Of a DNA stretch of 64,000 bases, positions 11,648 to 38,615 are shown piece after piece. How positions within the stretch are numbered: position 1 is the stretch's first letter; each line of letters starts with the position of its first letter. Source of the DNA: Escherichia phage UGJNEcP3; sequence record OV876907; one strand, written 5' to 3'. The position numbers and the translations under genes were made by a program. The notes beneath the pieces were generated by a model. It saw only the letters and a list, made by a program, of their open reading frames with translations. It was not told the DNA's origin and ran no database searches.

Positions 11648-11651
11648 GAAA

Positions 11652-11665
11652 GGGCCTTCGGGCCC
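11652..11665 (+). promoter_or_regulatory. RNA hairpin GGGCC-UUCG-GGCCC between genes 37 and 38
   Basis: perfect stem with UUCG loop directly before the GGAGG SD of gene 38; no T-run. Confidence 0.4.
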
Positions 11666-11676
11666 TGGAGGTTTTT

Positions 11677-12456: not shown

Positions 12457-12472
12457 TACGAAAGTATTAAAT

Positions 12473-12480
12473 TATAAATA
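12473..12480 (+). promoter_or_regulatory. T4-type late promoter TATAAATA upstream of holin gene t
   Basis: exact TATAAATA ~20 bp upstream of t ATG. Confidence 0.7.
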
Positions 12481-12498
12481 TCTTTAAAGGAGAAAAGT

Positions 12499-13424: not shown

Positions 13425-13465
13425 AATATTCTCTTCAATTCAGTACGTCATTATCTGATAGGGCT

Positions 13466-13494
13466 ATATTAACATATCCTTAGGGATTGTAAAC
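13466..13494 (-). promoter_or_regulatory. early promoter for asiA
   Basis: GTTTAC(13489-13494), 17 bp, TAATAT, then AGCCCTATCAGA transcribed box. Confidence 0.55.
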
Positions 13495-13638
13495 ATGTTC
13501 TTCATTCATTTTAACATATTCCTGATACATTTCTTCGATAGGTTCCTGGAACTTAAAATCAGCTCCTAGGAATTCCTCAAAGCACTCCTGCTCACGTGTA
13601 CGCATACCTGTTACGGTGTTCTCTAAGTTATGACTCAT
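13480..13638 (-). CDS. hypothetical small protein (52 aa)
   Basis: ATG 13636-13638 with AAGGGA-like SD; not in ORF track (<60 aa); ends in asiA promoter. Confidence 0.3.
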   Translation of the reverse strand: MSHNLENTVTGMRTREQECFEEFLGADFKFQEPIEEMYQEYVKMNEEHVYNP

Positions 13639-13727
13639 AGCCTTTTCCCTTATGTTTCTGCTTACGCTTGGACTCTTTAAAATTTTTCTTCTTGTCCTTA
13701 TGAACAGAAGCCTTATTGAAATCGTGC

Positions 13728-14009
13728 TTAGCTACCAGATTGTTCACGTAATTTCCTTAATTGATATTCAAGAGAGCTTATAATTTCTTTATTAGTCGCA
13801 ATATACATATCACGTAGGAATGGCTTCAACCCTTCCATATTTCCATGGATTGTCTTAGAACTAATATTCTTTATATATTCATGGTCTAATGCATCCCAAG
13901 CCGGCTGGTTGACATATGTTCCCCAGTTATCTTCTACCATAGCATTCAGACGTTTAATATGGTTGATATGGGCTTCGATTGCATCAATCTGGAGTTGTTT
14001 AAGATTCAT
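13728..14009 (-). CDS. hypothetical protein at the arn (anti-restriction) position
   Basis: 93 aa between asiA and motA where T4 has arn; not sequence-verified. Confidence 0.5.
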   Translation of the reverse strand: MNLKQLQIDAIEAHINHIKRLNAMVEDNWGTYVNQPAWDALDHEYIKNISSKTIHGNMEGLKPFLRDMYIATNKEIISSLEYQLRKLREQSGS

Positions 14010-14506
14010 TAGTAAAGGTCCTCAGAGTAAAGTTCTTTTTCACTACCACCGCGTTCAATACGAACTTGATTAGCATACGTTGCAATAATCATTGCTTCTT
14101 CACGAGTCCAATAATTTGAATATTGGTCAATAAAACCTTGGTCGTCACCACAAACATGGTCGGACACAAGTTTATCACTTACTTGGTCAAGCACTTCTGC
14201 CATATCTTTGGAATAATGACGTGCACCCGGAATAATAAGTGTTCCACCGTCTTTTAACTTAAAGCGATTGGCTGCACATACAATTCGACGTTGGTATTTT
14301 TCATTGTTATTCCAATGTGCAATCTGCCAACAGATTTCAGGAACCTCTTCTAAAACATCCTCTTCCGAATATTCAGTGTAATCACCGTAGGCTCGTAATT
14401 TAGCTGCAAGACTTTCAGGTGTCTCACGAGAAAGGGCTTTATCCAACAAGGCCATACGGTCTTTAAAGGATAATTCTTTACCTTTTAATGGATTCATTTG
14501 AACCAT
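14009..14506 (-). CDS. hypothetical protein (165 aa)
   Basis: compact early-strand ORF in arn-motA interval; no motif recognised. Confidence 0.6.
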
Positions 14507-14823
14507 CCTTTAACACGTTGCCATAAAGTTTTCTGTTGGGCTTTGTTAACACCTATTGAACGAATAACTGGTTGTGATTCCTGGTATTCTTTGTAGTCTG
14601 CTTTATAGACTTCATAAGCGGCAGGAACAAAAGTGCTGATTGCGGCCATGAAATTCTTGCGAATTCCCATAGAAGCTTCAGAACCACCACGGATGATTAG
14701 GTATTTACCCGCTTTAATCTTAACAATAGTGCCGAGATAAGCGCCGTGGTACCAAATATCCCAACCTTCTTGAGTAGGTTCTACACAACGACGAAGTTCA
14801 TTAACAATATTCAGCTTGTTCAT
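14494..14823 (-). CDS. hypothetical protein (109 aa)
   Basis: compact early-strand ORF overlapping its neighbour by 13 nt. Confidence 0.6.
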
Positions 14824-14837
14824 AATAATTTCCTCAG

Positions 14838-15473
14838 TCAGATAATTGCGTTGGTTACGGTTTTGATAACTTCAGATGATACGTTTTGGAAGTCGATATA
14901 AGTATTCTTACCACCAGTCTTAATCTTAACATCAAGATTCAAGGAAGTAAACACTTGTTTTTCTTTATCAGTCATATTATAACCGAAAATACGCATCATT
15001 CCATCACGACGGACTTCGATTTGACGAATACCATTGGTACGTTTAGCGAATCGAACTTCAAGGTTGCTACGGTTTTCAGCAATTTCACGAATCTCGATAC
15101 GGTCTTCTAATAAAGCTTTAACTTCATCAGCCAGTGTTACCATTTCAGGAGTAACACCACGTGAACTGCGCGTTTTACGTTTTTCCAACATCTCTGGAGC
15201 ATTTTCAGAAGCGAACAGGTCTGCAGCTTTTTGAACGAGGTCCATTGCTTCACCTGTAGCCACTAAACCATCACCGGATTTTTCGATGAATCCTTTCTTA
15301 ATCAATACACCGATGTTAGAGTTAACTACCGCAGCACTAAATTGCTCATTCAGGGCTTCACGGACTTCGCCTGAAGTGATGAAGTTATGCTTGATGATAT
15401 GTACTAAGATTGAAGCAGTTTTTTCATTCAGGGCGTCTTCAGAAGCTTTGATGATATAAGTAATTTTAGACAT
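14838..15473 (-). CDS. motA: middle-transcription activator MotA
   Basis: 211 aa; MSKxTYIIKAS..LNEKTA...SNIGVLIKKG...KSGDGL matches T4 MotA (memory). Confidence 0.9.
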   Translation of the reverse strand: MSKITYIIKASEDALNEKTASILVHIIKHNFITSGEVREALNEQFSAAVVNSNIGVLIKKGFIEKSGDGLVATGEAMDLVQKAADLFASENAPEMLEKRKTRSSRGVTPEMVTLADEVKALLEDRIEIREIAENRSNLEVRFAKRTNGIRQIEVRRDGMMRIFGYNMTDKEKQVFTSLNLDVKIKTGGKNTYIDFQNVSSEVIKTVTNAII

Positions 15474-15504
15474 TTTGTATCTCCGATAACCATTTATTTG
15501 ATAG

Positions 15505-15540
15505 GTCTATAGTATCATGTTTAAAGCAGATGTAAACACT
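15505..15540 (-). promoter_or_regulatory. early promoter for motA
   Basis: GTTTAC(15532-15537), 17 bp, caTGaTACTAT, then AGACCTATCAA box. Confidence 0.6.
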
Positions 15541-15554
15541 TTTTCACTAAACCC

Positions 15555-15576
15555 AAAAAAGGAACCCGAAGGTTCC
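15555..15576 (-). terminator. intrinsic terminator hairpin (UUCG loop + T-run)
   Basis: GGAACC-UUCG-GGUUCC then TTTTTT on minus strand, right after the micro-ORF stop. Confidence 0.6.
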
Positions 15577-15681
15577 TTACTTTTTAAAGTGAGCTGCTAT
15601 TAAACCTATAGCTAGGCCTGTGGCCAGGCCTAGGATAATAGCAAAGATACAGAGTAACAAGAACTCGACTCCAAGGCTCAT
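15577..15681 (-). CDS. 34-aa hydrophobic micro-protein coupled to gene 52
   Basis: ATG overlaps gene 52 stop (ATGA); MSLGVEFLLLCIFAIILGLATGLAIGLIAAHFKK is one TM helix. Confidence 0.45.
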   Translation of the reverse strand: MSLGVEFLLLCIFAIILGLATGLAIGLIAAHFKK

Positions 15682-17057
15682 AGAGACTCCAAATCTTTAA
15701 CATACTCAGTTACAACATCAGTGGTTTTCCAATATTGATGCTCTTCTTTCTTAGCCTTGGCTTCGAGGGCCAGTTTCTTGGCTTCGTCAGAAGTGATATG
15801 GAAAATGTTCATGGCCACTAGTTTATCGGCATATTCGCCATAGACTTTATTACCGGTCAATTCTTCGGTTAAAACCTTACGGGTCTTACCTTGGATAACC
15901 ACTACACCATCAATAACATCTTTGATAAATGTGGCTTTAGCCAATGCTAGTTTGAAAGCTTCTTCGGTTTCGATGATTTTACCATCAATACGTTTTTGTA
16001 CAAAGGTCTTACGGACCTCAACGAAATCACGAATCAGTTCAACTACATCTTCGTAAACCTTAAGTTTACCTTTTTCATTAATGACGGTCAGGTTTTGTGA
16101 ACGACGTTCGATTAACCCGAAGTCCTTCATGAGTTTTTCGTGTTTCTTATCTTCATCGGTAGGCAATTCATATTCTTTACGAATCTTAACCTTGAAGCCA
16201 AAACCGTTCTCGTCACAGTCATCATCATATGTGATGTACCCTTTGTCTTCCAGAGGGTCTAATACCTTAGCCACATATGTTTCACGGTCATATTTGTATG
16301 GGATTTCCGTGATATGCATTTGGGTTCGAGATGTGAACTTATACGTTCCACGAATCTCATAACTACCTGGTTCAATTTCAACAACTTCACCTCGGAATTC
16401 AGGATAAGCCACTTTAGGCTTGGTTACTCGTTTTTCCTGAAGAACTTGCAATACAGCTTTCTTAACAGAATCAAAACTATGAGGAAGAATATTAGTTGCA
16501 TAACCAGTTGCAATACCGGAAATACCATTAAGAAGAACAGTAGGAATAATAGGCAGATAAAAAGCCGGTGGCTTATGTTCGACATCCGCATGAACCGGAG
16601 CATATTCTGTGTCCTTATAAACTTTTGCAAAGTTACTTCCGATACGAGCAAAAATATAACGAGAGGCTGCAGCCTTTTGAACCAATCGAGAACCGAAGTT
16701 ACCTTGACCGTCTAACAATGGATAGTTGTTGTTCCATGTGTTAGCCATCAAAGCCCCTGCTTCCTGAGCAGAACCTTCACCATGGTGATATCCAAGGTCG
16801 GCTACGCCACCAGCAATAGAAGCTAGTTTGTGGAATTTTTCTTTATTACCACGAGCCATATCAAGACAACGAGCAACTACAAAACGTTGTACAGGTTTAA
16901 AGCCGTCAATCATATTTGGAATGGCTCGGTTTTCGACAGTATACATTGCATAAGCCAATGCTTCGTTGTCGATAATACTTTTTAAGTCACGACGAGTGAA
17001 AGAATCATCGTAAACATCTAAAGCCTGTTTAAAAAGGGTATCAATTACATCAGCCAT
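15678..17057 (-). CDS. 52: DNA topoisomerase II medium subunit gp52
   Basis: 459 aa; GyrA-type N-terminus (AMYTVENRAIPNMIDGFKPVQR), T4 gp52 size and position. Confidence 0.9.
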   Translation of the reverse strand: MADVIDTLFKQALDVYDDSFTRRDLKSIIDNEALAYAMYTVENRAIPNMIDGFKPVQRFVVARCLDMARGNKEKFHKLASIAGGVADLGYHHGEGSAQEAGALMANTWNNNYPLLDGQGNFGSRLVQKAAASRYIFARIGSNFAKVYKDTEYAPVHADVEHKPPAFYLPIIPTVLLNGISGIATGYATNILPHSFDSVKKAVLQVLQEKRVTKPKVAYPEFRGEVVEIEPGSYEIRGTYKFTSRTQMHITEIPYKYDRETYVAKVLDPLEDKGYITYDDDCDENGFGFKVKIRKEYELPTDEDKKHEKLMKDFGLIERRSQNLTVINEKGKLKVYEDVVELIRDFVEVRKTFVQKRIDGKIIETEEAFKLALAKATFIKDVIDGVVVIQGKTRKVLTEELTGNKVYGEYADKLVAMNIFHITSDEAKKLALEAKAKKEEHQYWKTTDVVTEYVKDLESL

Positions 17058-17061
17058 AATT

Positions 17062-17202
17062 TTACCATACTAGTGAATGAATAGCCATAATAACATCGGA
17101 AATAAAAAGCACAACTTGGATAAGTCCGAACATTACTCCATAATACAGTGCTACTAATAAAGCAGCAAGGGCTACTGAGTAGCCCAAGATTTTCTTAATC
17201 AT
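17062..17202 (-). CDS. 46-aa membrane micro-protein (52.1 position)
   Basis: ATG 17200-17202 overlapping ac-like stop; hydrophobic. Confidence 0.45.
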   Translation of the reverse strand: MIKKILGYSVALAALLVALYYGVMFGLIQVVLFISDVIMAIHSLVW

Positions 17203-17356
17203 TTTTAATCATCTTAAGTAAACCGACAGAAGTAGAAAGAACCCAGCCAATAAACAGAAAACTTAAGAATACCGGACCAGGGGCCCACACACCTAAAAAG
17301 AAGCAAACTGAACAGACTATAGCCATAATAAGTTCAATAAAAACTAGGATAACCAT
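17195..17356 (-). CDS. ac: Ac-like 53-aa membrane protein
   Basis: ATG 17354-17356 with GAGGA SD; two hydrophobic segments; position between stp and 52 as T4 ac. Confidence 0.5.
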   Translation of the reverse strand: MVILVFIELIMAIVCSVCFFLGVWAPGPVFLSFLFIGWVLSTSVGLLKMIKND

Positions 17357-17366
17357 ATTTTCCTCA

Positions 17367-17444
17367 TTAGCGTCCGAAGACGCCTTTAGTTTTAAGATTG
17401 TTACGATAGAACTGCATCACATGCTCGTTATGGAAATTACTCAT
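17367..17444 (-). CDS. stp: Stp peptide (25 aa)
   Basis: ATG overlaps ndd stop (TAATG); [25 protein letters not shown] matches T4 Stp as recalled. Confidence 0.75.
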
Positions 17445-17893
17445 TAGTATGCCTGCAGAATGAATTTAAAGTTATCAGCCAACATGCGGTTCATTTCTTC
17501 CAGTGTCTGGAGGTCGGAACTATGATTGCGGGTGAAAGCCATTGCAATTTGACCCTTACCAAAACCGGTGGTCAGAGGTTTCATCTTAGAAGCTGGTACA
17601 TAAAGAACTTCATACACAACACCGTTCACTGCCATGGTGCGAGCTGATTGAGAACGTTTCTTACGAATGTTAGCCACGATGCCATCAAGACCTTGGGCCG
17701 AACGTTGATTACCGACATAAAAACGAGCAGCTACGACACGAGAATCAGCTCCACCTTTAACAAAGAAGTAGAAGCCTGGCTGAGCAGAGATTTCTTTAGA
17801 AGGTTTACCATTTTGGTATTCACCGTTCTTAACATAAGCAACAGTAGTAGCACCAGCAGACAGAACGTTACGGCGAGTCATATAAGTATTCAT
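17444..17893 (-). CDS. ndd: nucleoid disruption protein Ndd
   Basis: 149 aa; ...[10 protein letters not shown]...[25 protein letters not shown]...[20 protein letters not shown] matches T4 Ndd (memory). Confidence 0.9.
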
Positions 17894-17942
17894 ATCAATT
17901 TCCTCAGTAGATTAATGTTTTGTTATCCGGTCAACGAGAACC

Positions 17943-17971
17943 ATTATAACATGATTCTCGAGGTTGTAAAC
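17943..17971 (-). promoter_or_regulatory. early promoter for ndd
   Basis: GTTTAC(17966-17971), 17 bp, caTGtTATAAT; inverted repeat CGAGAA/TTCTCG flanks -10. Confidence 0.55.
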
Positions 17972-18315
17972 TATTTTTGTAGCTGTTCTAAAATAAATCC
18001 GCTCGTATAAAAAGAAGCATTATAAACCTTGTTCAGCGGGTTCAAAGCCTGTCCGTAAGTATCACGTAGTTCTTTGATAACATTTTCATAGCTTACATAA
18101 TAACCACTATGATAATACGGGTCCATACTCATACGAAATTTAATAAACCGATAAAATCCTGTTTCTGGGTCTTGAACGAAAACGAAATCGGCACCCATCA
18201 TAATTTTTGAATCTACGCCAGGAATCATACTTTGATTGAATGCCACCGATGCATCCTGAAGGCTGAGTTGTTTAAAGAACATTACCTTAGCATTACCAAA
18301 AAAGATTTTAGACAT
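17971..18315 (-). CDS. hypothetical protein (114 aa from internal ATG)
   Basis: ATG 18313-18315 with AAGGAAA SD after upstream stop; track ORF extends to 18339. Confidence 0.6.
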   Translation of the reverse strand: MSKIFFGNAKVMFFKQLSLQDASVAFNQSMIPGVDSKIMMGADFVFVQDPETGFYRFIKFRMSMDPYYHSGYYVSYENVIKELRDTYGQALNPLNKVYNASFYTSGFILEQLQK

Positions 18316-18325
18316 GATAATTTCC

Positions 18326-18538
18326 TTATTCAGCGTCAACAGAAATAGCCATCAGTTCATCAACAGTAAGACACTGTACACTAGGTCCTACACAAAAGCG
18401 CTTAGTTGAATCATAAAGGTCCGTGGCATTAACAGGTTGTAATTCGGTCCCAACTTGCAAAGGAGAAATGCGAATCAGTTGTTGACCGTTATGTAATACA
18501 AAGCTCTCGCCGACTACCACATCTTTAAAAAGTTTCAT
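18326..18538 (-). CDS. hypothetical protein (70 aa)
   Basis: start moved to MKLFKD ATG with GAGG SD overlapping the micro-ORF stop. Confidence 0.55.
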   Translation of the reverse strand: MKLFKDVVVGESFVLHNGQQLIRISPLQVGTELQPVNATDLYDSTKRFCVGPSVQCLTVDELMAISVDAE

Positions 18539-18548
18539 AATATTTTCC

Positions 18549-18659
18549 TCAGAAGTTAAAGAATACACGTACATGGTCAATCATAAAAACGATTGGGAAA
18601 ATGCTCAATACCATTAACAACACAAACATGTTCCAAATTGCTTTAAGTAAGTTTTTCAT
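18549..18659 (-). CDS. 36-aa hydrophobic micro-protein
   Basis: ATG 18657-18659 with GGAG SD just after an early promoter; MKNLLKAIWNMFVLLMVLSIFPIVFMIDHVRVFFNF. Confidence 0.45.
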   Translation of the reverse strand: MKNLLKAIWNMFVLLMVLSIFPIVFMIDHVRVFFNF

Positions 18660-18679
18660 AATCATCTCCATTAGTTGAT

Positions 18680-18716
18680 AGGTCTATAGTATCATGATTA
18701 ATGGAGATGTATACCG
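18680..18716 (-). promoter_or_regulatory. early promoter (GTATAC -35 variant)
   Basis: GTATAC, 17 bp, caTGaTACTAT, AGACCTATCAACTAA box. Confidence 0.55.
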
Positions 18717-18804
18717 ATTTATGCCAATTTCCACAACAATAAACTAAAACATACGCAAATCACTGGGATACAGGCCATCCAAATAAGGCACCACGTTTTG
18801 CTAC

Positions 18805-19071
18805 TCAAAACACCACCTCTTTTATCTCAATCAATCCCCTGTACAATGCAGTGCGGAGGTCATAAAGAATATCTATGCCGTCAACATTATCCAGTTTTCC
18901 ATCAATAAGCTTTTCTAAATCTTCCTTTGATGCGATTAAAGGACGGAGAAATTTACATTCAGAAAGAGATAACTCTGTAGTAACATCATCACCTTCACCT
19001 GACGCGTCATACATAGCGGCAACAACCATGCCTGTAACTTTGTGTTTAGCGTAATATAATTTGATATCCAT
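18805..19071 (-). CDS. hypothetical protein (88 aa)
   Basis: start at MDIKLYY ATG with GAGGAG SD; track N-extension is translated promoter. Confidence 0.6.
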   Translation of the reverse strand: MDIKLYYAKHKVTGMVVAAMYDASGEGDDVTTELSLSECKFLRPLIASKEDLEKLIDGKLDNVDGIDILYDLRTALYRGLIEIKEVVF

Positions 19072-19127
19072 TTTGTTCTCCTCATTAGTTGATAGGAAGA
19101 TAGTAACACCATCCATGGCATTATAAC

Positions 19128-19355
19128 TTAAGCAATGGAATGTTTTGGATGCTGTTTAGCCCAACCTACTAAAAATTCCCAATACTTTTCGATAGAACCG
19201 TAAAGATTAATTACCGTAGGAGTGGTAACTTCAGTCCAATCTTTTTGAACATTACCTGTTTTAATATTGGTAAGCTTGTGAAACACTTTACCGTTCTCAA
19301 ATTTATATTCTTCGATTTTACGATTGATTGCTTTAACAGAAGTAATAGAAGTCAT
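19128..19355 (-). CDS. hypothetical protein (75 aa)
   Basis: start at MTSITSV ATG with GAGAGGAAA SD; track N-extension is translated promoter. Confidence 0.6.
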   Translation of the reverse strand: MTSITSVKAINRKIEEYKFENGKVFHKLTNIKTGNVQKDWTEVTTPTVINLYGSIEKYWEFLVGWAKQHPKHSIA

Positions 19356-19369
19356 AATATTTTCCTCTC

Positions 19370-19408
19370 GTGTAGTTGATAGGAAGATAGTAACACCATC
19401 CATGGCGT
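19370..19408 (-). promoter_or_regulatory. early promoter
   Basis: GTTTAC(19400-19405), 18 bp, gTGtTACTAT, CTTCCTATCAACTAC box. Confidence 0.55.
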
Positions 19409-19431
19409 ATGTAAACACTTATTTTAAAAAA

Positions 19432-20458: not shown

Positions 20459-21490
20459 TTAGTATTTGTATTCGTTTGCGAACTGTTCAGTGACGTCTTC
20501 CAGAACTTCATAATAACATACACGCATTTTAGCATCACCGTAATCGACCGGGATACTAACAACATCACGTGGGTTAACTTTACATGAAACTACTTTACAG
20601 CTTGAGTTACCAAAATGACCGATATAGCTACGAGAGCAAACGTGCAGACCACTTGAACAAGTTACTTCATCATCGTCATTTACACGAGAACGTGGCATTT
20701 TAACCGGTTTGCCTGGTGAGTTATCAAACGTACCGGTACGACAGTCGGTGTAATCAGAGTTAACTACCTTCCACGTAATAAAGTGGCCATCTTCAGTAAT
20801 TTTGATGTCGTTTGCCACCAGGAAGTCGAACAGACGCTGTACAGCTTTTTCGCTTGGGTTTTCTAACAGGTTTTCAAGGAACGGCAGGTAGAATTCGAAG
20901 TCTTCACCATTTTCCATTGAAGTGATAATACGGTCAATCAGCCCTGAACGCAATTCAATGCCTTGGTAAACCAGCCGTCCACCTTCAATACGAACGTTAC
21001 CTTTAACAAATGCTTTAACAGCTTCTTTAATAGAAATCAGTTTAATTGCATCATCGAAACGGGATTCTTTAAGAGCCTGTACGATGGCATCGAAATGTTT
21101 ATTCTTATTAGTAGTGTTCCATACTGTACGACCTTCAGTGATGGATACGAATTTAGAACTGGCATTCCAAATAATTTCAGGACGAGAACCACCAATAGTG
21201 GCTTCAACAGGAACAACCAGCAGGTTAGGAACTGTTACCGTAACATTTCCGGTAATAACCACTTCTGTTGGGGCGTTAAGAGGTACAGTAGGTGCTTTTT
21301 TAAGAGATTCGGCCATAGAATTAGCCACTTGAGAACGTTTAGCTTCTTCAGCATTTTTCAGGACTTTACGAATGGTATCAACCGAAACACTGTACCAATC
21401 GGCTAGTTCTTGCTGGGTATAATTACCAGATTTATAGAGGGAAACTACTTGCTCTTGTTCAGATTTAGCCAGACACTTAATATTGTACAT
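20459..21490 (-). CDS. rIIB: rIIB protein
   Basis: 343 aa; MYNIKCL..SGNYTQQELADW..VSVDTIR.VLKNAEEAKR and C-terminal CYYEVLEDVTEQF match T4 rIIB (memory). Confidence 0.9.
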   Translation of the reverse strand: MYNIKCLAKSEQEQVVSLYKSGNYTQQELADWYSVSVDTIRKVLKNAEEAKRSQVANSMAESLKKAPTVPLNAPTEVVITGNVTVTVPNLLVVPVEATIGGSRPEIIWNASSKFVSITEGRTVWNTTNKNKHFDAIVQALKESRFDDAIKLISIKEAVKAFVKGNVRIEGGRLVYQGIELRSGLIDRIITSMENGEDFEFYLPFLENLLENPSEKAVQRLFDFLVANDIKITEDGHFITWKVVNSDYTDCRTGTFDNSPGKPVKMPRSRVNDDDEVTCSSGLHVCSRSYIGHFGNSSCKVVSCKVNPRDVVSIPVDYGDAKMRVCYYEVLEDVTEQFANEYKY

Positions 21491-21504: not shown

Positions 21505-23715
21505 TTAAGCCGCTTCCACGGCTTTCATGAATTTAACGATTTGAGCTACAGAAGCCTCGGTAATGGATGTTCCACGACGATACATGTAGTCCGAAACTAA
21601 ATGGTAATCAGATTCAAACTGTACAGTCATTTTATCATTGTTGCTTGAAGCATTATTGGTTAACGTATTAAACGTATTGTTACAAATTCTCTTGGTGATA
21701 TTCAATTTATCATCAGTGATATAACCATGGAAATTCGTATAACGGAATATATCATAGAAATTACTCAGACGAGTATATGCTTCAGACACAGGCTTATCAC
21801 TGAAATACTTGGTCATGAAACCGAGCTCAGGGAACTTAGCAATGATTTCAAGATAATACCTTGCACGGGTATTACTGCCAATATAATCATCAATATCTAC
21901 AGCATCTAATGCTTCAGCATAAGCTTCTAACGTGGTTTCCATCAAGCATTCGCACTGGCCTAACTTTTTAATCTTTTTAGCAATCTGAGGGCGAATGATA
22001 TGGAATTCGGTAACACCAATCAAATTAGCCATACGACACATGGTAGTGGTATTGATGTCAAAGATACCATAAGCTTCGTCCATTCCCATAATATCAGAAC
22101 GACTGCCAAACAGGACATAACCGGTAATTTCTTCTGCTTCAGCGGTGGTCAAATACATGGTCTCTGTTTGCCAGCGCCCGTCTTTAATGAACCAACGATA
22201 AGCACTTGGTGTTTTAGGACGAGGTTCTGATGAACGAACAGTAACCGGAATCCATGGCTTAACAATTTTATTCAGTTCAGAGACTTTATAAAAATGAATT
22301 GTGTCACCTTTAAAAAGTTCTTTAACCTTTTCAAGTTGTTGCATTTGCAACATTGAATTCGGGTCGACAAAAATAAGGTCAGTTCCGTATTTAGGAATAT
22401 TATGCTCTTTAACAACTTTCTTGGCTGAAGCACTGTTGTCCATTGCCAGAGCCCAAAGTCCTCGAACTAATGGCACACGACCCTTTTCGTCGTCATAAAC
22501 AACATGGATTTCTTTCTTATTAATGCCTAATAAACTACTAAGTCCTGCTACCGAAGAAGTATTACCACTTGACTTAATTCGTTTCAAACGTGGGTCTGAA
22601 ACGACTTCGTAAACAACGCCTAAATTAAGAAGGTCGTTTTGAAGTGTATATTTTTGATACAGTTTTTCAAAGGTCAATTTTTCTGTAGTAAACAGGCTAG
22701 TTCCACCTTTTTTGGTAAGATAGTCACGAGCACTGTAACCAAGGTTAGAAAGGTCACGATAAACATGACGTGGGTTATCAGATTCAACCCATTCACGGGT
22801 ATCATTTTTAAAGACTACCGCATCCAGTGCTTCGATACGAGTTGCAATATTTTCCATCGTACGTTTATCAAGAGACAACACTTCACGAGACGGAGCAATA
22901 TCCAGTGAACCCATAGGGAACTTAATATAAACTACATCATGGCGAGTACGCATCCATGTGCCTTTAATATAAGCTGAATCCAATGGATAAACAATACCAC
23001 CATAAACGGCATAAAGTCCTGAACGTTCGAAATCTCTGTAACCGCTATCTGTTACAGCATAGTAGTCATCAAACTCAGGGAAATAATCAATTTCAGCCCC
23101 ATCGACATCACCAAGACCAATGAATGGACGCATGATATAACGAACTTCAGTTTCAAACTTACGGAAATCTTCTTCATCCACAGGAACTGTGATTTCGATA
23201 CCTGTTTTATCACCTGGCTGCATAGGTTCTACGAAAGTAGGTTTAATCTGTGGTCCGTCACCATCCATATAAGCTACATAACCACGAACTTCGCCATTAT
23301 GCCATGAGGTAATATTAAACGTTTCGGTATAACTGAACGGAGATTTTGAACCAAGGCCAAAGCCGCCGATGAAATCATTAGAAGCCGTTTTGGACGACGC
23401 GAAATAAGAGTTATACAAACCTGTTTCGTTTTCATCACCACGAATTTGGAAATCGCTCATACCCGGCCCGAAGTCACGGCATACGAAACGAGGGTCCAGT
23501 TTACCAGGGACCTGTACTTTCCAACGTTCTTTATTACCATTCAGAATATGGGCGTCAATCATGTTGGTAATTAGTTCACGGACTACAGCGCGCACCTTAT
23601 TACTATAAAGGTCTGATGACAGAATTTTAAAGACCTTAGGCGATGCCTGGATAGTAAAGCCTGTGGACTTAGCACCATTACCAATGATTTGTTCTTTTTC
23701 GGTTTCGATAATCAT
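21505..23715 (-). CDS. rIIA: rIIA protein
   Basis: 736 aa; N-terminus ...FKILSSDLYSNKVRAVVRELITNMIDAH... matches T4 rIIA (memory). Confidence 0.9.
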   Translation of the reverse strand: MIIETEKEQIIGNGAKSTGFTIQASPKVFKILSSDLYSNKVRAVVRELITNMIDAHILNGNKERWKVQVPGKLDPRFVCRDFGPGMSDFQIRGDENETGLYNSYFASSKTASNDFIGGFGLGSKSPFSYTETFNITSWHNGEVRGYVAYMDGDGPQIKPTFVEPMQPGDKTGIEITVPVDEEDFRKFETEVRYIMRPFIGLGDVDGAEIDYFPEFDDYYAVTDSGYRDFERSGLYAVYGGIVYPLDSAYIKGTWMRTRHDVVYIKFPMGSLDIAPSREVLSLDKRTMENIATRIEALDAVVFKNDTREWVESDNPRHVYRDLSNLGYSARDYLTKKGGTSLFTTEKLTFEKLYQKYTLQNDLLNLGVVYEVVSDPRLKRIKSSGNTSSVAGLSSLLGINKKEIHVVYDDEKGRVPLVRGLWALAMDNSASAKKVVKEHNIPKYGTDLIFVDPNSMLQMQQLEKVKELFKGDTIHFYKVSELNKIVKPWIPVTVRSSEPRPKTPSAYRWFIKDGRWQTETMYLTTAEAEEITGYVLFGSRSDIMGMDEAYGIFDINTTTMCRMANLIGVTEFHIIRPQIAKKIKKLGQCECLMETTLEAYAEALDAVDIDDYIGSNTRARYYLEIIAKFPELGFMTKYFSDKPVSEAYTRLSNFYDIFRYTNFHGYITDDKLNITKRICNNTFNTLTNNASSNNDKMTVQFESDYHLVSDYMYRRGTSITEASVAQIVKFMKAVEAA

Positions 23716-23722
23716 ATTTTTC

Positions 23723-23926
23723 TCAATTCAGGTTACGTTTAAAAAGATCTGCCACTTCAAGGAGCTCGTCCTTAGTAGCGATGTCGTTGAGTATTTTATA
23801 TCTGATTTCTTTAAAGCGTTCTTTAAAATCCTCAGCCGCATTGATATCAAAAAATCTCTGGATTAACCTGAATTCTTTATGGACGGCTTTATCAAACAAA
23901 TCAATATTCACTTTAAAGTTTGTCAT
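23723..23926 (-). CDS. hypothetical protein (rIIA.1 position)
   Basis: 67 aa directly upstream of rIIA. Confidence 0.55.
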   Translation of the reverse strand: MTNFKVNIDLFDKAVHKEFRLIQRFFDINAAEDFKERFKEIRYKILNDIATKDELLEVADLFKRNLN

Positions 23927-24236
23927 TTTTAACTACCTCATGTTGAACATATTCTCTGGTAGAACCTAGTTCAGCCAGAATTCTTCTCATAGAACCCATT
24001 GTACTTTTGTGCTCTCTGTGGCGATACATTATCTCTAAAACCTTTTCCTGGACAACAGGAGAGAGCGCCTGGTTATCTTTAATCTTTAAGGCAATAGATT
24101 TTACAGCCTTAAGGTATTCAAGTCCCTTACCGCTTGTAGTCACTATTCCTTCATCTTTACAGTTACGAATAGCCGTTTCCATAAAGGATAAAGCCAGGTT
24201 GCCCGTATTCACTATACTGTTATCTTGCATAATCAT
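23913..24236 (-). CDS. hypothetical protein (107 aa)
   Basis: early-strand ORF in the interval that holds gene 60 in T4; unrelated to gene 60. Confidence 0.55.
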   Translation of the reverse strand: MIMQDNSIVNTGNLALSFMETAIRNCKDEGIVTTSGKGLEYLKAVKSIALKIKDNQALSPVVQEKVLEIMYRHREHKSTMGSMRRILAELGSTREYVQHEVVKNDKL

Positions 24237-24309
24237 ATTCTCACCTCTTAGAGAATCGTATCATACTTTTAATCAGTTGTAAACCCCGAAAAGGGCCTTG
24301 CGGCCCTTA

Positions 24310-24510
24310 TTAGTTACTTGAATCGACCTTATAGACTTGCCCGCGGGTTTGGTAAACTTCGCCGTCCCATGTTTCAACTGTGATAGTAACGTACTCTGCA
24401 AAAAGAGGACGTGTATCTGTCCAGAGATAACCATATTCACCTGTGACGAGCGTAACCCAGTACTTTCTCATAAAGTCTCCTTTTGTATGGCACCAATTAG
24501 TACCATACAT
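24310..24510 (-). CDS. hypothetical protein (66 aa)
   Basis: ORF between gene 39 stop and a GNRA hairpin (24295-24308). Confidence 0.5.
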   Translation of the reverse strand: MYGTNWCHTKGDFMRKYWVTLVTGEYGYLWTDTRPLFAEYVTITVETWDGEVYQTRGQVYKVDSSN

Positions 24511-24515
24511 ATTTA

Positions 24516-26333
24516 TTACGACATCCAGGCCTTACGGAGTTGGGGGTCATTACCAAGGAGCATTTCGAACTGTTCTTTCCAATCTTCAGGTAATTGAACA
24601 ACATCAAATTTAGGGTCTTGAATCATTCGGCGGTATTCAGCTTTCTCAAGAGAACCTAGTCCTTTGATATACCGAATAGAATGTTTTGGTAGAGAGTCCT
24701 TAGCTTTGGTATAACTAGGAACATCATAGAACCATTCCTGTTCTTTACCGACCTGGGCAATAATTACCGGAGTTTTACAGAAACGTACTCGGCCTTGTTC
24801 GAACAATTCAGGCCATTGGCTAAAGAAGGCTAGCAATGATGGATAAATCGAACCAGTACCATCCACATCGGCATCAGTCATAATAGCAATATTACGATAG
24901 TTAGTTTTCTCTGCAGGTTCACCAATAATCAATCCAGTGATTGCACAGATATCAAATAGTTCCTTGTTCTTCATGATATCTGTTGCTGTCATTCCCCAGG
25001 TATTCATAACCTTACCACGTAATGGATAGCCACCTTGAAGGTCTTTATTACGGACTTCAATGAAAGGACCCATAGCGGAATCACCTTCGGTTAGGAACAG
25101 GGTTGTATCAGCATCTTTGCCGTATAGGTTAGCTTTAATATGCTTATGGACCTTGGCTTTAGAAGCTTTCTTAGCGGCTTTAGTTTCGGCAGCCTTTTCG
25201 GCTGCTAATTTACGTGCTAAAGCAGCTTCAACGATAGGCATAATCAACCCATCAACTTTAAGAATGGCTTGGGCAATTTTCTTGGCATCAATTTGGATAT
25301 GATTACGAATCTCACCAAACGGAGATGTTAAGCGCTCTTTAGTCTGGGAATCAAAACGCATGTTGCTCATATCACGAATGAACATCACCATCGTAAGGCA
25401 TTCTTTAACACGAGCTTTAGTTACTTCAATTCCACGGTATTTCTTTTTAATACCAGGCAGAAGATGTTCACAGATATCATCGAACACACATTCAACGTGG
25501 TGACCACCATTCTTGGTATGGATATTGTTTACATACGTCAGTTGACGGAACCCGTCCGGAGAAGGAGTAAATGCCATCGAAACATTATCAGTTTCCTGGA
25601 TTACAAAGTCTTCACCAAATTGCTTAGCATACTTTTTAAAGTTGCCATCTACTTTTTTACCATTAAAAGTAAATTGGATATCTGGATAAATTACAGCTAG
25701 TGTTTGAAGTCGGTCTAATGTAATATCCAGATAAATTTGGGACAGGCTATTTTCTTCGAAATGGTTAAAGTCCGGAGTGAATATAACCGAAGTACCCTTA
25801 CCTTTAGATTTCTTAGTAGACCAACCTTTGTTTTCCATTCCGTTTGAACAGTTAACAGTAATCTCATTCTCACCATCAGAGGTGATGCCTGTGAACAAAA
25901 CAGAGAAGATATTAGTTAAACTACTACCGACACCATTCATGCCGCCTGTCTTACGCTCAGCGTCATCTCCAAAGTTACCACCTGCCTTTGGAATAGTCCA
26001 TGCAGCTACAGGACCTGGAATTTGTTCACCATTTTGGTCGGTGACCATTGCTTGTGGAATACCACGACCATTATCAGAAACTGAAACCTGGTTATTCTTA
26101 ATTTGAACATCAATTTTATTTGCGAATTTAAAATTGGTACGAATAGCTTCATCGACAGAGTTATCAATGATTTCGTCAATTAATTTAACCAGTCCAGGAA
26201 CATAGTTTACCTGTGTAAAATTACCAAACAGGAATCGACCGTGAGCTTCATTAGCACTGGAGCCAATATACATCCCACTACGTTTTTTGATATGTTCAAT
26301 GTCGGACAGTACTTTAATTTCATTCTTAATCAT
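24516..26333 (-). CDS. 39: DNA topoisomerase II large subunit gp39, uninterrupted GyrB-like form
   Basis: 605 aa single ORF; GyrB-type ATPase motifs (IDNSVDE, DNGRGIP, GGxNGxGSS) and TOPRIM region; not split into 39+60. Confidence 0.9.
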   Translation of the reverse strand: MIKNEIKVLSDIEHIKKRSGMYIGSSANEAHGRFLFGNFTQVNYVPGLVKLIDEIIDNSVDEAIRTNFKFANKIDVQIKNNQVSVSDNGRGIPQAMVTDQNGEQIPGPVAAWTIPKAGGNFGDDAERKTGGMNGVGSSLTNIFSVLFTGITSDGENEITVNCSNGMENKGWSTKKSKGKGTSVIFTPDFNHFEENSLSQIYLDITLDRLQTLAVIYPDIQFTFNGKKVDGNFKKYAKQFGEDFVIQETDNVSMAFTPSPDGFRQLTYVNNIHTKNGGHHVECVFDDICEHLLPGIKKKYRGIEVTKARVKECLTMVMFIRDMSNMRFDSQTKERLTSPFGEIRNHIQIDAKKIAQAILKVDGLIMPIVEAALARKLAAEKAAETKAAKKASKAKVHKHIKANLYGKDADTTLFLTEGDSAMGPFIEVRNKDLQGGYPLRGKVMNTWGMTATDIMKNKELFDICAITGLIIGEPAEKTNYRNIAIMTDADVDGTGSIYPSLLAFFSQWPELFEQGRVRFCKTPVIIAQVGKEQEWFYDVPSYTKAKDSLPKHSIRYIKGLGSLEKAEYRRMIQDPKFDVVQLPEDWKEQFEMLLGNDPQLRKAWMS

Positions 26334-26354
26334 GTTATTTCCTCATGTAGTAGG

Positions 26355-26385
26355 AGAATATTATCCCATTTCACTTAAAGCATAA
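26355..26385 (-). promoter_or_regulatory. possible MotA-dependent middle promoter for gene 39
   Basis: minus-sense TGCTTTA MotA-box-like motif ~12 bp upstream of TAATAT. Confidence 0.35.
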
Positions 26386-26399
26386 AAGGGCCGAAGCCC

Positions 26400-26660
26400 T
26401 TAATCAAATCGAATGGTCGACTTTTTAAAGAATAGCCCAGAACAAACTGTTCCTTCAACCCTTTTACCTGTCGGACCTACAGCAATAAAGCCTGTACGTT
26501 GGAAATCATCTTCAGAGCAGCCAAATAGGTTGTATCCCGTGATTTGGATTTGTTCATAGCCATTTGCATCCAATACACGGGTAGCATTATCAGCATCAGT
26601 ACATCCAACCAGTGAAACTGCTAATACGAGAGCTGCAATAGAACGATTAATATATTTCAT
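26400..26660 (-). CDS. small lipoprotein (86 aa)
   Basis: signal peptide with lipobox LVGC (MKYINRSIAALVLAVSLVGC). Confidence 0.6.
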   Translation of the reverse strand: MKYINRSIAALVLAVSLVGCTDADNATRVLDANGYEQIQITGYNLFGCSEDDFQRTGFIAVGPTGKRVEGTVCSGLFFKKSTIRFD

Positions 26661-26850
26661 AATTTCTCACTTAGTCAGTAGGTCGTAAAACCCGCCATTA
26701 ACATGTTTAGGAGCCGAGACTAACCGAACAGCCAGCCGTTGGCAATCAGGACAAACATCATTATCTCTTTCAGATATTTTCTTGATTTTTTTCGTATTCT
26801 TTTGCACAGTCTTCTGATTGGCATTTATAATCATAAAGTGGCATCTTCTA

Positions 26851-27222
26851 TTATTCCTTAAAGTGGGCTTTCAACATCTGGTAAACTGTCCAGGCTTCAG
26901 AATTATTAGAGATAGTGATTTTAGTCAAAGGGAATTCGCTTGGCTCAGATGGAGCCGCGTCTTCGCATTCATCTTCGGTATCGTCATCTTTTTCTTCTTC
27001 AAAGAAACGACGCTCATCTTTCTTTATGAATAGGCTCGTAAATTCACCAGTTGATAATTCCATTTTATACACATCACCATCTTCAATTCTGACTGGTCTA
27101 AATCCCTCGCCATTGATTATAGTATCGGCTATATTATCATTATCTGTACATAACAAACGGAATTTGCTTTCGGCATCATTATCTTTAAAATAATACCACT
27201 TATCGGTTTCAAATTTGGTCAT
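26851..27222 (-). CDS. hypothetical acidic protein (123 aa)
   Basis: start at MTKFETD ATG with AGGAG SD inside the upstream ORF end; acidic D/E-rich C-terminal half. Confidence 0.6.
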   Translation of the reverse strand: MTKFETDKWYYFKDNDAESKFRLLCTDNDNIADTIINGEGFRPVRIEDGDVYKMELSTGEFTSLFIKKDERRFFEEEKDDDTEDECEDAAPSEPSEFPLTKITISNNSEAWTVYQMLKAHFKE

Positions 27223-27433: not shown

Positions 27434-27457
27434 TTTATTTTCCTCTCATTTGTTGAT

Positions 27458-27496
27458 AGGGTAATAGTATCACACTACTACCCTGTTGTATACCAC
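27458..27496 (-). promoter_or_regulatory. early promoter (GGTATAC -35 variant)
   Basis: GTATAC, 18 bp, gTGaTACTAT, TACCCTATCAACAAA box. Confidence 0.5.
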
Positions 27497-36144: not shown

Positions 36145-36666
36145 TTAATAACCACGGTCCTGACGAGCAAAGTTCTCGGCATTTTTCAGATAATACAGTT
36201 TAAAGATTTCTTCTGCAGTAAGTCCAAGACCCTGGAACATATTCAGAACAAAGTGCAGAATATCAATCATTTCGAATTTAATTTCGAGTTGGTCTTCAGG
36301 AGACAACTCGTCGATACGACGATTACGGAATTCAGCATGCTGAGCTTTCCAAGGCTTCCACACACTAGAGGCTGCTTTTTCACCGTTGGACATACCGCCA
36401 AGAGAAGTCAGCAGTTCACGGAATTCATCGTCAATATAATCTTTCTGGTTGCGAAGCCAATCGACGACTTGACCTGCGGTAGCCAGTTCATCAGGATTAG
36501 AGTTGAATTCTGATTTTTCGGTAGCCAGGCGAACCTGTAAAGATTTCTGCATATCAAGCATAACTTGCAGAGGGTCTTTATCTTCATGAATCAGAGCATT
36601 AAAATAAGCTTCCTCAGCTTTATCAACACCAGAAATCAAACCACTACATTCGTTAAAAAATGCCAT
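36145..36666 (-). CDS. 56: dCTPase/dUTPase (MazG-like) gp56
   Basis: 173 aa; size, position (between soc and 61) and helical NTP-pyrophosphatase character. Confidence 0.8.
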   Translation of the reverse strand: MAFFNECSGLISGVDKAEEAYFNALIHEDKDPLQVMLDMQKSLQVRLATEKSEFNSNPDELATAGQVVDWLRNQKDYIDDEFRELLTSLGGMSNGEKAASSVWKPWKAQHAEFRNRRIDELSPEDQLEIKFEMIDILHFVLNMFQGLGLTAEEIFKLYYLKNAENFARQDRGY

Positions 36667-36670: not shown

Positions 36671-37327
36671 TTATTTCCTATTAAAGTTTTCTATCATTCG
36701 TCGATAACAAATATCAGGATATCCATTATCAACAGCTATTTTATTAAATTTGGTGCGTTTAGGTTTATTATTGTAAACCCATAATTCATAAAGCATATCG
36801 TAACTATTCCATATTTCTCCACGCCTAGGATTTGGCAAACCATATCGAGGGGAATCTTTACCACTAAATCTTCCTTTTCTAGCTTTACTCATATTGGCCT
36901 TGGCTTCATCAGATATAATTTTATCTTTATGAGCCAGGCGCATTTTGGCTTTAGTTTCTTCAGGAGTTTTCATCCCTCTAATCCAGGAAGGTTTACCAAA
37001 CATCGGGTTATTTTTTCCCGAAAATGCTTTAGCGTTATTTTCTCTTAACGTGGCTATAGTTCTACTAGTTAATTTAACTCCTTTATTATATCTCATTAAA
37101 TTAACAGCATAATGTAGACCTTTTACTTCGGGATATATTTTTGTTAAAAGCCTATGAGCTACAAAGTGTTCTCTTGGCAATAAAGCAACTAAATTGTTTT
37201 TATCATCAGAACCATTCATACATCTAGGTATAACATGGTGTTCTTCCGTATAATACGATAAAGACCGCTTAGAACCTCTTAATTTTCCTTTAGATATTAA
37301 TTCCTGGTATATTTTTTCGTAATTCAT
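36671..37327 (-). CDS. HNH homing endonuclease with NUMOD3-like repeats
   Basis: 218 aa; HNH core EEHHVIPRCMNGSDDKNNLVALLPREHFVAH; repeated GKNNPMFGK / GKDSPRYG modules; between 56 and 61. Confidence 0.8.
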   Translation of the reverse strand: MNYEKIYQELISKGKLRGSKRSLSYYTEEHHVIPRCMNGSDDKNNLVALLPREHFVAHRLLTKIYPEVKGLHYAVNLMRYNKGVKLTSRTIATLRENNAKAFSGKNNPMFGKPSWIRGMKTPEETKAKMRLAHKDKIISDEAKANMSKARKGRFSGKDSPRYGLPNPRRGEIWNSYDMLYELWVYNNKPKRTKFNKIAVDNGYPDICYRRMIENFNRK

Positions 37328-37389: not shown

Positions 37390-37590
37390 ATGGGCAGTAT
37401 TTTTTACCAAATCTGGAAATTGGCCGAAAAGAAAGACAAGAAAATGATGTTAGGTTTTCTTGCGCTAGACGTATTCCTTTGGAATCTTTTAGTAGTTCCT
37501 GTAGCCGCTAGCCAAGGGGTAATTTTACCAGCGGTTACAATGGAACACGTATTAAGCATAATTGGATTCTTTAGCGGAGTTCCTGTCTAA
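37390..37590 (+). CDS. small membrane protein (66 aa), opposite strand to neighbours
   Basis: AGGAGG SD 6 nt before ATG; hydrophobic segments; own late-promoter motif. Confidence 0.5.
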   Translation: MGSIFYQIWKLAEKKDKKMMLGFLALDVFLWNLLVVPVAASQGVILPAVTMEHVLSIIGFFSGVPV

Positions 37591-38615
37591 ATTTTAGAAT
37601 ATTTTGAAAGCCTCATTTTTGCCATTAACCCTTGGGCTATATTAGCTTTCATATACGCCAATATATCATTTATATCAGCTTTATCTTTCATAACCATATC
37701 ATTTATATCTTTAGAAGGCCATGGAGCCTTGTCCCAGAATAGGACCCTTTCGCCGGCATCAACTAATCGTTGCATACGCTTAATTGTGTCAGGATGACGG
37801 GGTTCATTGTCCATTACCCAAGCACGAGTTTCTTTACATGGAACCATAGCCAAGTCCAACGACCCACCAGTAATTGCTATTGCATTAGGTACGAATAATG
37901 AATCAATAGGACCTTCCATTACCCACACCAATTGACGTTCGTCAACTGTATCCATTCCATATATTTTTGTAGCTTGGTCATGAGCTTTTATTGTAATATA
38001 TTTTTGTGGAGCATCTTTACGCAAGGCTCGGCCCTGAAAACTTTCAATTTGTTTATTCTTATTGAAAATTGGAATAACCAAACGTGGTTCAGGCATTTCT
38101 TTGGAATAGGTCCCTGGATTCACAGAGTTAACTAATGCTGGCCATTCTTTAGTAAACCATAACCGATTCCATTTATTTTCAGGAATGCACCGCAGAGTTA
38201 CATACTTAATAATAGGATGGTCTTTCGGCATTCTATCTAATCGTTCACAGAAATTAAGCTTTTCAATGACAGGCATCTTAGCTTTAATTTTTTCAGATAT
38301 CTCCACCTTAGGTGCAGCTTGTCTCCCAAACGATTGCTCTTTATGTTTCTCAAGAATATATTCGCGATATAAATCAGGCTCATATTCGTATAGGTACTTC
38401 TTAATTCCTGCCGAATAATCACAGTTAAAACAGTGCAGCATTACGGAGCCATCATTAGCTGGATAGGCCCAAAAACGAGCTTTGTTCTCATCTTTTAGGG
38501 AGTCGCCACATACACGACAACGACAGTTTAATTTAAAATCACTACCGGTTACTTGTCTGAATTTAGGTTGGTAATTCAAGGCACGTACAGCAAATTCTCT
38601 ATCGACATATGACAT
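37587..38615 (-). CDS. 61: DNA primase gp61
   Basis: 342 aa; N-terminal zinc ribbon CRCRVCGDS...HCFNC; size identical to T4 gp61. Confidence 0.9.
   Translation of the reverse strand: MSYVDREFAVRALNYQPKFRQVTGSDFKLNCRCRVCGDSLKDENKARFWAYPANDGSVMLHCFNCDYSAGIKKYLYEYEPDLYREYILEKHKEQSFGRQAAPKVEISEKIKAKMPVIEKLNFCERLDRMPKDHPIIKYVTLRCIPENKWNRLWFTKEWPALVNSVNPGTYSKEMPEPRLVIPIFNKNKQIESFQGRALRKDAPQKYITIKAHDQATKIYGMDTVDERQLVWVMEGPIDSLFVPNAIAITGGSLDLAMVPCKETRAWVMDNEPRHPDTIKRMQRLVDAGERVLFWDKAPWPSKDINDMVMKDKADINDILAYMKANIAQGLMAKMRLSKYSKI

Follow-up and report, generated by a model that had tools for sequence, protein, structure and literature searches.

Split and unsplit topoisomerase genes in T4 relatives

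In phage T4, the gene for the DNA topoisomerase II large subunit is in two parts, separated inside the TOPRIM domain by a roughly 1-kb element. This element gives gp39 an additional tail of 43 aa and gp60 a head of 31 aa, and brings with it a decayed mobA, ORF 60.1 and a 50-nt gap after Gly46 of gene 60. The TEGDSA-type Glu motif is carried by gp39 and the DxD motif by gp60. According to works that cite Bonocora et al. 2011, the split arose when a MobA element with its bypass cassette entered an unsplit gene, as shown by experimental transfer into T2. A 2022 preprint (bioRxiv 10.1101/2022.08.31.505936) describes unsplit genes as the "parental" state invaded by the MobA element, which inserted many times independently and does so within gene 39, not downstream of the gene. 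The limits of the insertion, aa 466–473 to D490/G491 in RB14 numbering for Topo2L, were mapped with empty-site phages 96–99% identical to the invaded ones. Invaded genes carry two insert-derived peptides, a CTE of about 44 aa and an NTE with a unique part of about 30 aa plus homR. The same study reports that "hit-and-run" fused genes occur in Aeromonas phages.

Other T4 relatives have a single gene, as a 2010 review already noted (PMC3014915). T2 and T6 are unsplit and have a two-subunit enzyme, and cryo-EM structures are available for the unsplit T6 gp39 and for T4 gp39–gp60 (PMC11461880). The unsplit genes 39 of T2, T6 and RB14, all Tequatrovirus, lack CTE, NTE, bypass gap and mobA. Among T4 relatives, a single-piece gene 39 is thus the usual and long-known condition, and is ordinary.

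The window analyzed here is a stretch of 64,000 nucleotides from Escherichia phage UGJNEcP3 (OV876907). Its gene 39 is, with a probability of about 96%, the normal, unsplit gene of a JS98-like T-even phage (Dhakavirus). A search for arguments against this reading brought up nothing. Positions 23000–27000 share 100% nucleotide identity with Escherichia phage UGJNEcP4 (Dhakavirus, OV877765.1), and the gene calls are equal. JS98, JS10 and IME08, also Dhakavirus, have a gp39 of 605 aa with 97.5–98.5% protein identity to the product of the window gene (98.3% for JS98), and their genes follow one another as in the window (39.1 – 39 – small ORFs – rIIA.1 – rIIA). The JS98 RefSeq record leaves two of the small ORFs unannotated and otherwise shows no substantive difference. 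The gene is in one piece in 44 of 44 records with an at least 95% identical protein. More broadly, homologues occur in 2,200 phage records, and in 1,951 of these a single location accounts for at least 80% of the protein. The window is therefore a further example of a normal unsplit gene 39, one that was already in the databases with its annotation, and in this respect matters very little. Its use lies in a clear negative result: there is no hidden frameshift, element scar or mobA remnant.

A complete large subunit on a single chain

Gene 39 is an uninterrupted ORF of 605 aa with an ATG start (24516..26333; minus strand, like all features of the locus described below). As the initial annotation had stated, the topoisomerase large subunit is one ORF, and the translation holds a terminal stop only, with zero internal stops. 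The product is GyrB/ParE-like, with the domain order GHKL ATPase, transducer and TOPRIM that is also found in T2, T6 and RB14. Pfam HATPase_c scored 41.3 bits (cut-off 26.4) and DNA_gyraseB 50.2 bits (cut-off 27), while phrog_543 matched with an E value of 1e-280 over residues 1–605. The N-box, G1 and G2 motifs of the GHKL domain were tested and are present (EIIDNSVDE, residues 54–62; DNGRGIP, 87–93; GGMNGVGSS, 130–138), and the QTK loop of the transducer reads QTKERL (residues 330–335). Within TOPRIM, the catalytic Glu motif TEGDSA occupies residues 415–420 (25074..25091) and the DxD motif TDADVDG residues 486–492 (24858–24878). One chain carries all four of the GHKL, QTK, TOPRIM-Glu and DxD motifs, whereas in T4 the last two are divided between gp39 and gp60. 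Neither the Pfam profile Toprim (18.5 bits, cut-off 23.1) nor the profile TOPRIM_C (21.5, cut-off 29) reached its gathering score, so TOPRIM is assigned from the motifs and from homology over the full length to phage enzymes of solved structure. One of these is T6 gp39 (8ylu), which matches the product across its whole length, residues 1–605 aligning to 1–604 of PDB 8ylu_C.

By homology to the characterized T4 and T6 enzymes (PMC11461880), the product is expected to be active in ATP-dependent DNA relaxation and to pair with the gp52 homologue. The latter is a GyrA-like partner subunit of 459 aa, encoded at 15678..17057 on the minus strand (PF00521 DNA_topoisoIV, 256.6 bits). Gene 39 would thus encode the whole GyrB-like subunit of a phage type IIA topoisomerase on a single chain, and the two proteins would form an A2B2 enzyme, as in T2 and T6.

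Small ORFs between gene 39 and rIIA

The initial annotation had described the interval between gene 39 and rIIA as a remodelled gene-60 locus with three small unrelated ORFs. Three ORFs on the same strand are indeed present, but the one of 67 aa is rIIA.1, which occupies the same place in T4. No gene-60 locus exists here; rIIA.1 is conserved in position and the other two ORFs are typical of the lineage. The interval is bounded downstream by rIIA (21505..23715, 736 aa), which is in our ORF list and which the identical record OV877765 labels RIIA lysis inhibitor. The rIIA.1 homologue (23723..23926) lies 7 nt upstream of rIIA, a position shared with T4, RB14, JS98 and VR7. Its residues 1–67 match positions 1–67 of 67 in the PF24210 T4_RIIA1 profile (103.7 bits, cut-off 27), and it also belongs to phrog_1683. 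On the other flank, 39.1 lies upstream of gene 39 in T4 as in the window, and a terminator-like hairpin, AAGGGC-TTCG-GCCCTT (26386..26401), lies between the two genes.

The rIIA.1 homologue overlaps by 14 nt the stop of a 107-aa ORF (23913..24236) that encodes a DUF7367 protein. Residues 1–102 match positions 1–101 of 101 in the PF24075 profile (149.4 bits, cut-off 27), and the protein falls in phrog_5382. DUF7367 was found by tblastn in 124 phage records, including Gaprivervirus, Marfavirus, Enterobacter and Edwardsiella phages, and adjoins rIIA.1 in every record inspected. The third ORF lies closest to gene 39. It has 53 aa (24310..24471), or 66 aa with the first ATG as its start (24310..24510), and matches phrog_4369 with an E value of 2.9e-29. 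The second ATG (24471) is most likely the start because AAGGAG precedes it, phrog_4369 covers only residues 14–63 of the long form and GenBank (OV877765) annotates 53 aa. The protein is 66% identical to VR7ORF004c, which occupies the same position in Gaprivervirus.

The content of the spacer from gene 39 to rIIA.1 varies by genus. RB14 has nothing there, rIIA.1 following gene 39 after 54 nt, whereas in the window the two extra small ORFs intervene over about 590 bp. Marfavirus has DUF7367 alone, Dhakavirus and Gaprivervirus have both ORFs, and Mosigvirus ST0 has instead an ORF of 366 aa; the pair is absent from Tequatrovirus. Both ORFs occur in all close Dhakavirus records. They are conserved genes that fill a variable spacer and are typical of the lineage. 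The 0.8-kb interval between gene 39 and rIIA consists of rIIA.1, as in T4, and these two small genes in the genus-variable part.

This variability, together with the signals between the two ORFs, would also fit an accessory cassette, self-contained and acquired in the spacer, that serves in host takeover or anti-defence and has no link to the topoisomerase. A putative terminator, the hairpin GGGCC-GCAA-GGCCC followed by TTTT (24289..24306), was read from the sequence directly after the 53-aa ORF; our consensus scan missed it because the T run has only 4 bases. A sigma-70-like promoter match (TTTACA, 17 nt, TACGAT with TG; 24255..24283) lies upstream of the DUF7367 ORF. It is weak evidence, since promoter matches in the region were not above chance (7 found, 10.4 expected), and across 23500–26700 promoter and terminator matches were no more numerous than in shuffled sequence. 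Against such a role, the families offer only a Pfam DUF and PHROG entries of "unknown function", DUF7367 has no PDB relative by sequence, its single-sequence AlphaFold2 model (four helices) is of low confidence (mean pLDDT 62.9, pTM 0.46), and the GC content of both ORFs is near that of their neighbors. We regard a cassette of this kind as unlikely; it would complement the unsplit gene 39 and not compete with it. Slightly more doubtful still is the broader idea that T4-like phages have repeatedly acquired genes in this spacer, in which case the pair shared by Dhakavirus and Gaprivervirus would be an early-expressed, undescribed host-takeover or anti-defence cassette.

An empty MobA target site

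T4 gp39 and gp60 together are homologous to the gene 39 product, with 77% identity to each half. Residues 1–474 align with T4 gp39 1–473 and residues 478–605 with T4 gp60 32–159, and the equivalent of the T4 split is at about residue 474–478. This corrects the split point of ~515 proposed in the initial annotation, which had named a stop or frameshift near that residue as the finding that would speak against an intact ORF; translation shows neither. T4 gp39 extends beyond the shared region because of its 43-aa insert-derived tail. Codons 471–492 (GEPAEKTNYRNIAIMTDADVDG; 24858..24923), the stretch that the mobile element replaces in MobA-invaded phages, are intact. They lie inside TOPRIM, with the catalytic Glu motif on one side and the DxD motif on the other. 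The ORF is continuous across residues 460–500, with no split within the reported limits (aa 466–473 to D490/G491). The site that in T4 holds the MobA homing-endonuclease element and the 50-nt bypass cassette is empty here and without a scar.

The position of the bypassed gap was located by comparing the codons of the window with those of T4 gene 60. The 50-nt gap of T4 follows the take-off codon Gly46 (GGA), a position that corresponds to the junction of Gly492 (GGT) and Thr493 (ACT) in the gene 39 product. These two codons are directly contiguous (24855..24860), and no bases are inserted between them relative to RB14, so that a coding gap of ~50 nt is absent. The RB14 protein, annotated as '60plus39', is likewise 605 aa and aligns with the gene 39 product end to end, with one offsetting gap per sequence; the two are 78% identical in protein and about 74% identical in nucleotide sequence.

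Sequence searches gave no trace of the element. The T4 versions of CTE (43 aa) and NTE (31 aa), used as tblastn queries against the whole window, returned a best E value of 0.098, with no match in gene 39. When the T4 insert was compared with the interval by tblastx, only the C-terminus shared by gene 60 and gene 39 was recovered, and in the tblastx and tblastn searches together all other matches had E values of at least 0.089. Remnants of mobA, 60.1, CTE or NTE were not found by tblastx and tblastn in 23.6–24.6 kb (mobA: 23600–24600) or in gene 39. The initial annotation had pointed to mobE as the relevant endonuclease and to 23.7–24.5 kb as the place to look for its remnants; the T4 locus carries mobA, and mobA-like sequence was sought there by tblastx and tblastn, Pfam and PHROGs, with none detected. 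Gene 39 is the unsplit, empty-site form, in which a gene that was never invaded and one from which the element was lost perfectly cleanly look alike. It is also, as had been proposed, of the ancestral type: CTE, NTE, 50-nt gap and mobA are all missing, and this form is the parental one in the literature (bioRxiv 10.1101/2022.08.31.505936).

A visible history of invasion and loss is very improbable. Under such a "hit-and-run" scenario, a MobA-type element once occupied the locus and was later lost, and the small ORFs are what remains of gene 60 and mobA. Fused genes of that kind are known in Aeromonas phages, where the clade 7 Topo2L (Manning & Atkins 2022) is a single full-length ORF as in the window, and the mob-type HNH endonuclease encoded elsewhere in the window (36671..37327) shows that such elements circulate in the lineage. 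The Aeromonas proteins, however, retain CTE/NTE-like insertions at the MobA site, whereas the window protein has exactly the length of the parental RB14 form and no insertion at residues 466–492 (aligned block 455–505), and we rejected the scenario on these grounds. Furthermore, the CTE and NTE peptides are unmatched, and the small ORFs lack HNH or other endonuclease domains (Pfam, PHROGs) and mobA similarity and belong to families conserved in several genera. ORFs past the gene 39 stop codon could in any case not be MobA relics, because the element inserts inside gene 39. Least credible is the idea that an artefact of assembly or reading conceals a split or bypass-type gap. No support for it was found, and against it stand the single terminal stop, the contiguity of Gly492 and Thr493 where T4 has its gap, and an equal 1,815-nt single-piece match in 44 independently sequenced Dhakavirus records.

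The ordinary, unsplit gene 39 had also been put forward as a comparator for how the T4 split arose. Its identity to the T4 group, 77% in protein and ~74% in nucleotide sequence, makes it a poor one: a 77%-identical protein adds nothing to that comparison. Empty-site phages at 96–99% identity have already served to map the insertion. The divergence itself may have a consequence. Over the 66-nt target stretch, the window and RB14 are 74% identical without gaps, and this 26% nucleotide divergence may render Dhakavirus naturally immune to MobA homing. Such immunity, if true, would account for the unsplit gene in all 44 close records. The sole mob-like match in the window is at 37187–37282, 12 kb away from the locus.

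Gene 39 and its product

Gene 39 (24516..26333, minus strand, ATG start) is real, correctly placed and ordinary: it is the standard unsplit form of a deposited, annotated Dhakavirus and is already known. It encodes the 605-aa DNA topoisomerase II large subunit and is followed by three small ORFs and then by rIIA (21505..23715, minus strand, 736 aa), all on the same strand, and the coordinates and ORF count of the initial annotation are correct. The only stop in the translation is the terminal one, and the stop or frameshift near residue 515 considered in that annotation is absent. The PHROG family phrog_543, ‘DNA topoisomerase II large subunit’, spans residues 1-605 (E 1e-280). HATPase_c and DNA_gyraseB score above the Pfam gathering cut-offs, and Toprim and TOPRIM_C just under them. 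The TOPRIM catalytic Glu motif, TEGDSA, lies at residues 415-420 and the DxD motif, TDADVDG, at 486-492.

Two PDB chains from 2024 cryo-EM work on T4 and T6 topoisomerase II (PMC11461880) match the protein: the alignment to 8ylu_C covers residues 1-605, and 8yo3_C, a T4 gp39–gp60 fusion, aligns in two stretches. With its 611 residues and single-stretch match, 8ylu_C fits the unsplit T6 gp39 expressed in that study. The same work describes two-subunit topoisomerases in T2 and T6, three subunits being unique to T4, and an artificial gp39–gp60 fusion whose activity equals that of the natural split enzyme. By homology, the gene 39 product would assemble with the GyrA-like gp52 (15678..17057; PF00521, 256.6 bits) into an A2B2 type IIA topoisomerase carrying out ATP-driven strand passage.

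Over positions 23000-27000 the window shows 100% identity to UGJNEcP4, an Escherichia phage of the genus Dhakavirus (OV877765.1; subfamily Tevenvirinae of the Straboviridae), and 92-96% to QL01, WG01, JS10, IME08 and JS98; the gene 39 ORF is already labelled DNA topoisomerase II large subunit in these records. Position 3638 of OV877765.1 corresponds to window position 23000, so that window 1-19362 (~19.4 kb, including gp52 and the long tail fibre genes) would precede its base 1. Either the window crosses the arbitrary linearisation point of that record at rIIB/rIIA, or the two are different permutations of one genome.

Comparison with split and unsplit relatives

T4 gp39 and gp60 were taken from NC_000866, with the two gene-60 exons joined around the annotated 50-nt bypass. 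Residues 1-473 of gp39 align with 1-474 of the window protein (77% identity, one gap), and residues 32-159 of gp60 with 478-605 (77%, ungapped). The last 43 residues of gp39, its insert-derived C-terminal extension, and the first 31 of gp60, the unique part of its N-terminal extension, have no counterpart in the window protein. When the two extension peptides were searched against the whole window by tblastn, the best E was 0.098 and no match fell within gene 39. At the bypass, the T4 codons GAC GCA GAT CAC GAT GGA are separated by the 50-nt gap from TTA GGT TCT ATT, whereas the window reads GAT GCC GAT GTG GAT GGT (D-A-D-V-D-G492) directly into ACT GGT TCG ATT, beginning with T493. The alignment limits and codon comparison together place the split-equivalent point at residues 474-478, rather than near 515 as first proposed, and the bypass equivalent at 492/493. 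These points fall within TOPRIM, between the Glu and DxD motifs. For the MobA element, Manning & Atkins (2022 preprint) give limits of aa 466-473 to D490/G491 (RB14 numbering), with which both points agree. The T4 record and the literature also identify the endonuclease gene of the T4 39/60 locus as mobA, not mobE.

The T4 relative RB14 carries an unsplit gene annotated ‘60plus39’. Its product, JS98 gp39 and the window protein are all 605 aa long, the window protein being 78% identical to the first and 98.3% to the second, and the alignment has no insertion in block 455-505 of the window protein. Equal length and the lack of insertion rule out a split gene. They equally rule out a ‘hit-and-run’ scar of the type reported for Aeromonas phages (2022 preprint), in which the large subunit is fused and the MobA element lost, but an extension-like insertion kept. 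The 66-nt stretch that the element replaces shows 74% DNA identity between the window and RB14, close to the 73.5% for the whole gene.

Searching with the 605-aa protein (tblastn) found homologues in 2,200 of 50,697 phage records, 1,951 of which cover at least 80% of it in one place. All 44 records at least 95% identical, the Dhakavirus group, give single-piece matches, 1,815 nt long except in the two records of phage vB_EcoM_005 (query residues 1-600); T4 gives a two-piece match spanning 2464-5317. The preprint reports the MobA element in 28 genomes, amid near-identical ‘parental’ genomes without it, and infers at least ten independent insertions. The unsplit form was therefore rightly called ancestral-type, but this is established knowledge, and as a comparator the window falls well short of the empty-site phages that have already served in this role.

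The gene 39–rIIA interval

The ORF nearest gene 39 runs to 66 aa from its first ATG (24310..24510, minus strand; phrog_4369). A 53-aa form (24310..24471) is more likely, since AAGGAG precedes the second ATG, the PHROG match covers residues 14-63 only and the identical GenBank record has the short form. It is 66% identical to VR7ORF004c, which holds the same position in the Gaprivervirus VR7. Next lies a 107-aa DUF7367 ORF (23913..24236, minus strand; PF24075, 149.4 bits; phrog_5382), overlapping by 14 nt the 67-aa rIIA.1 (23723..23926, minus strand; PF24210, 103.7 bits). The three small ORFs are present as initially described, but they are not all ‘unrelated’: rIIA.1 has a T4 homologue and occupies the same position in the window, T4, RB14, JS98 and VR7. 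Pfam, PHROG and similarity searches of the three revealed no HNH, GIY-YIG or mobA/60.1 similarity.

DUF7367 has homologues in 124 phage records (tblastn), with identities of 95-100% in Dhakavirus, 52-57% in Klebsiella, Enterobacter and Edwardsiella phages and 38-41% in Gaprivervirus, and adjoins rIIA.1 in every record whose features were inspected. Sequence searches found no PDB relatives, and a single-sequence AlphaFold2 model shows four helices at low confidence (mean pLDDT 62.9).

Between gene 39 and rIIA.1, RB14 has an ORF-free 54 nt, Marfavirus EI has DUF7367 alone, Gaprivervirus has both small ORFs, as in Dhakavirus, and Mosigvirus ST0 has a 366-aa ORF without a Pfam match (L007, the ST0 locus, 3361-4461). 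The spacer is a small spot of genus-dependent content across T4-like genera. A ‘remodelled gene-60 locus’ is not borne out, and the MobA element in any event enters gene 39 itself, not the region downstream. Upstream, 39.1 precedes gene 39 in T4, RB14, JS98 and the window, whereas in VR7 (L005, the VR7 locus, 1-403) the adjacent gene is annotated ‘endonuclease VII’ and shares 4 nt with the beginning of gene 39, a further local difference in gene content.

A GC-rich hairpin with a tetraloop, followed by TTTT, lies after the 53-aa ORF (24289-24306), a similar one upstream of gene 39 (26386-26401) and a promoter-like match upstream of the DUF7367 ORF. Promoter- and terminator-type matches in the scanned region show no excess over shuffled sequence, and these signals are therefore only suggestions.

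Neighbouring genes and repeats

A free-standing 218-aa HNH + NUMOD3 homing endonuclease (36671..37327, minus strand) lies between the gp56 dCTPase (36145..36666) and primase gene 61 (37587..38615). Over its N-terminus this protein shares 50% identity with the T4 MobA fragment (E 1.9e-6), and its counterpart is labelled ‘mobE’ in IME08 and VR5. A mob-type element is thus present in the window, yet 12 kb from gene 39. This stretch is fully covered in only 9 close records; ~25% of the query is missing from JS98, QL01 and most other Dhakaviruses, a pattern that fits presence/absence polymorphism of a mobile endonuclease gene.

The rIIB homologue (20459..21490, minus strand, 343 aa) has sub-threshold Pfam matches to HTH_7, Sigma70_r4 and HTH_28 at residues 9-50, these N-terminal helix-turn-helix scores being 18-21 bits against cut-offs of 24-25. 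A family of 34-nt direct repeats (18672-18705, 19086-19119, 19373-19406 and 27450-27483; two copies identical, two 65-74%) is intergenic, just upstream, on the minus strand, of small early-region ORFs, and probably represents repeated promoter or leader boxes. The repeats give ORFs 18805..19116 and 19128..19418 a common N-terminal extension with ‘MDGVTIFLST’, which is probably spurious.
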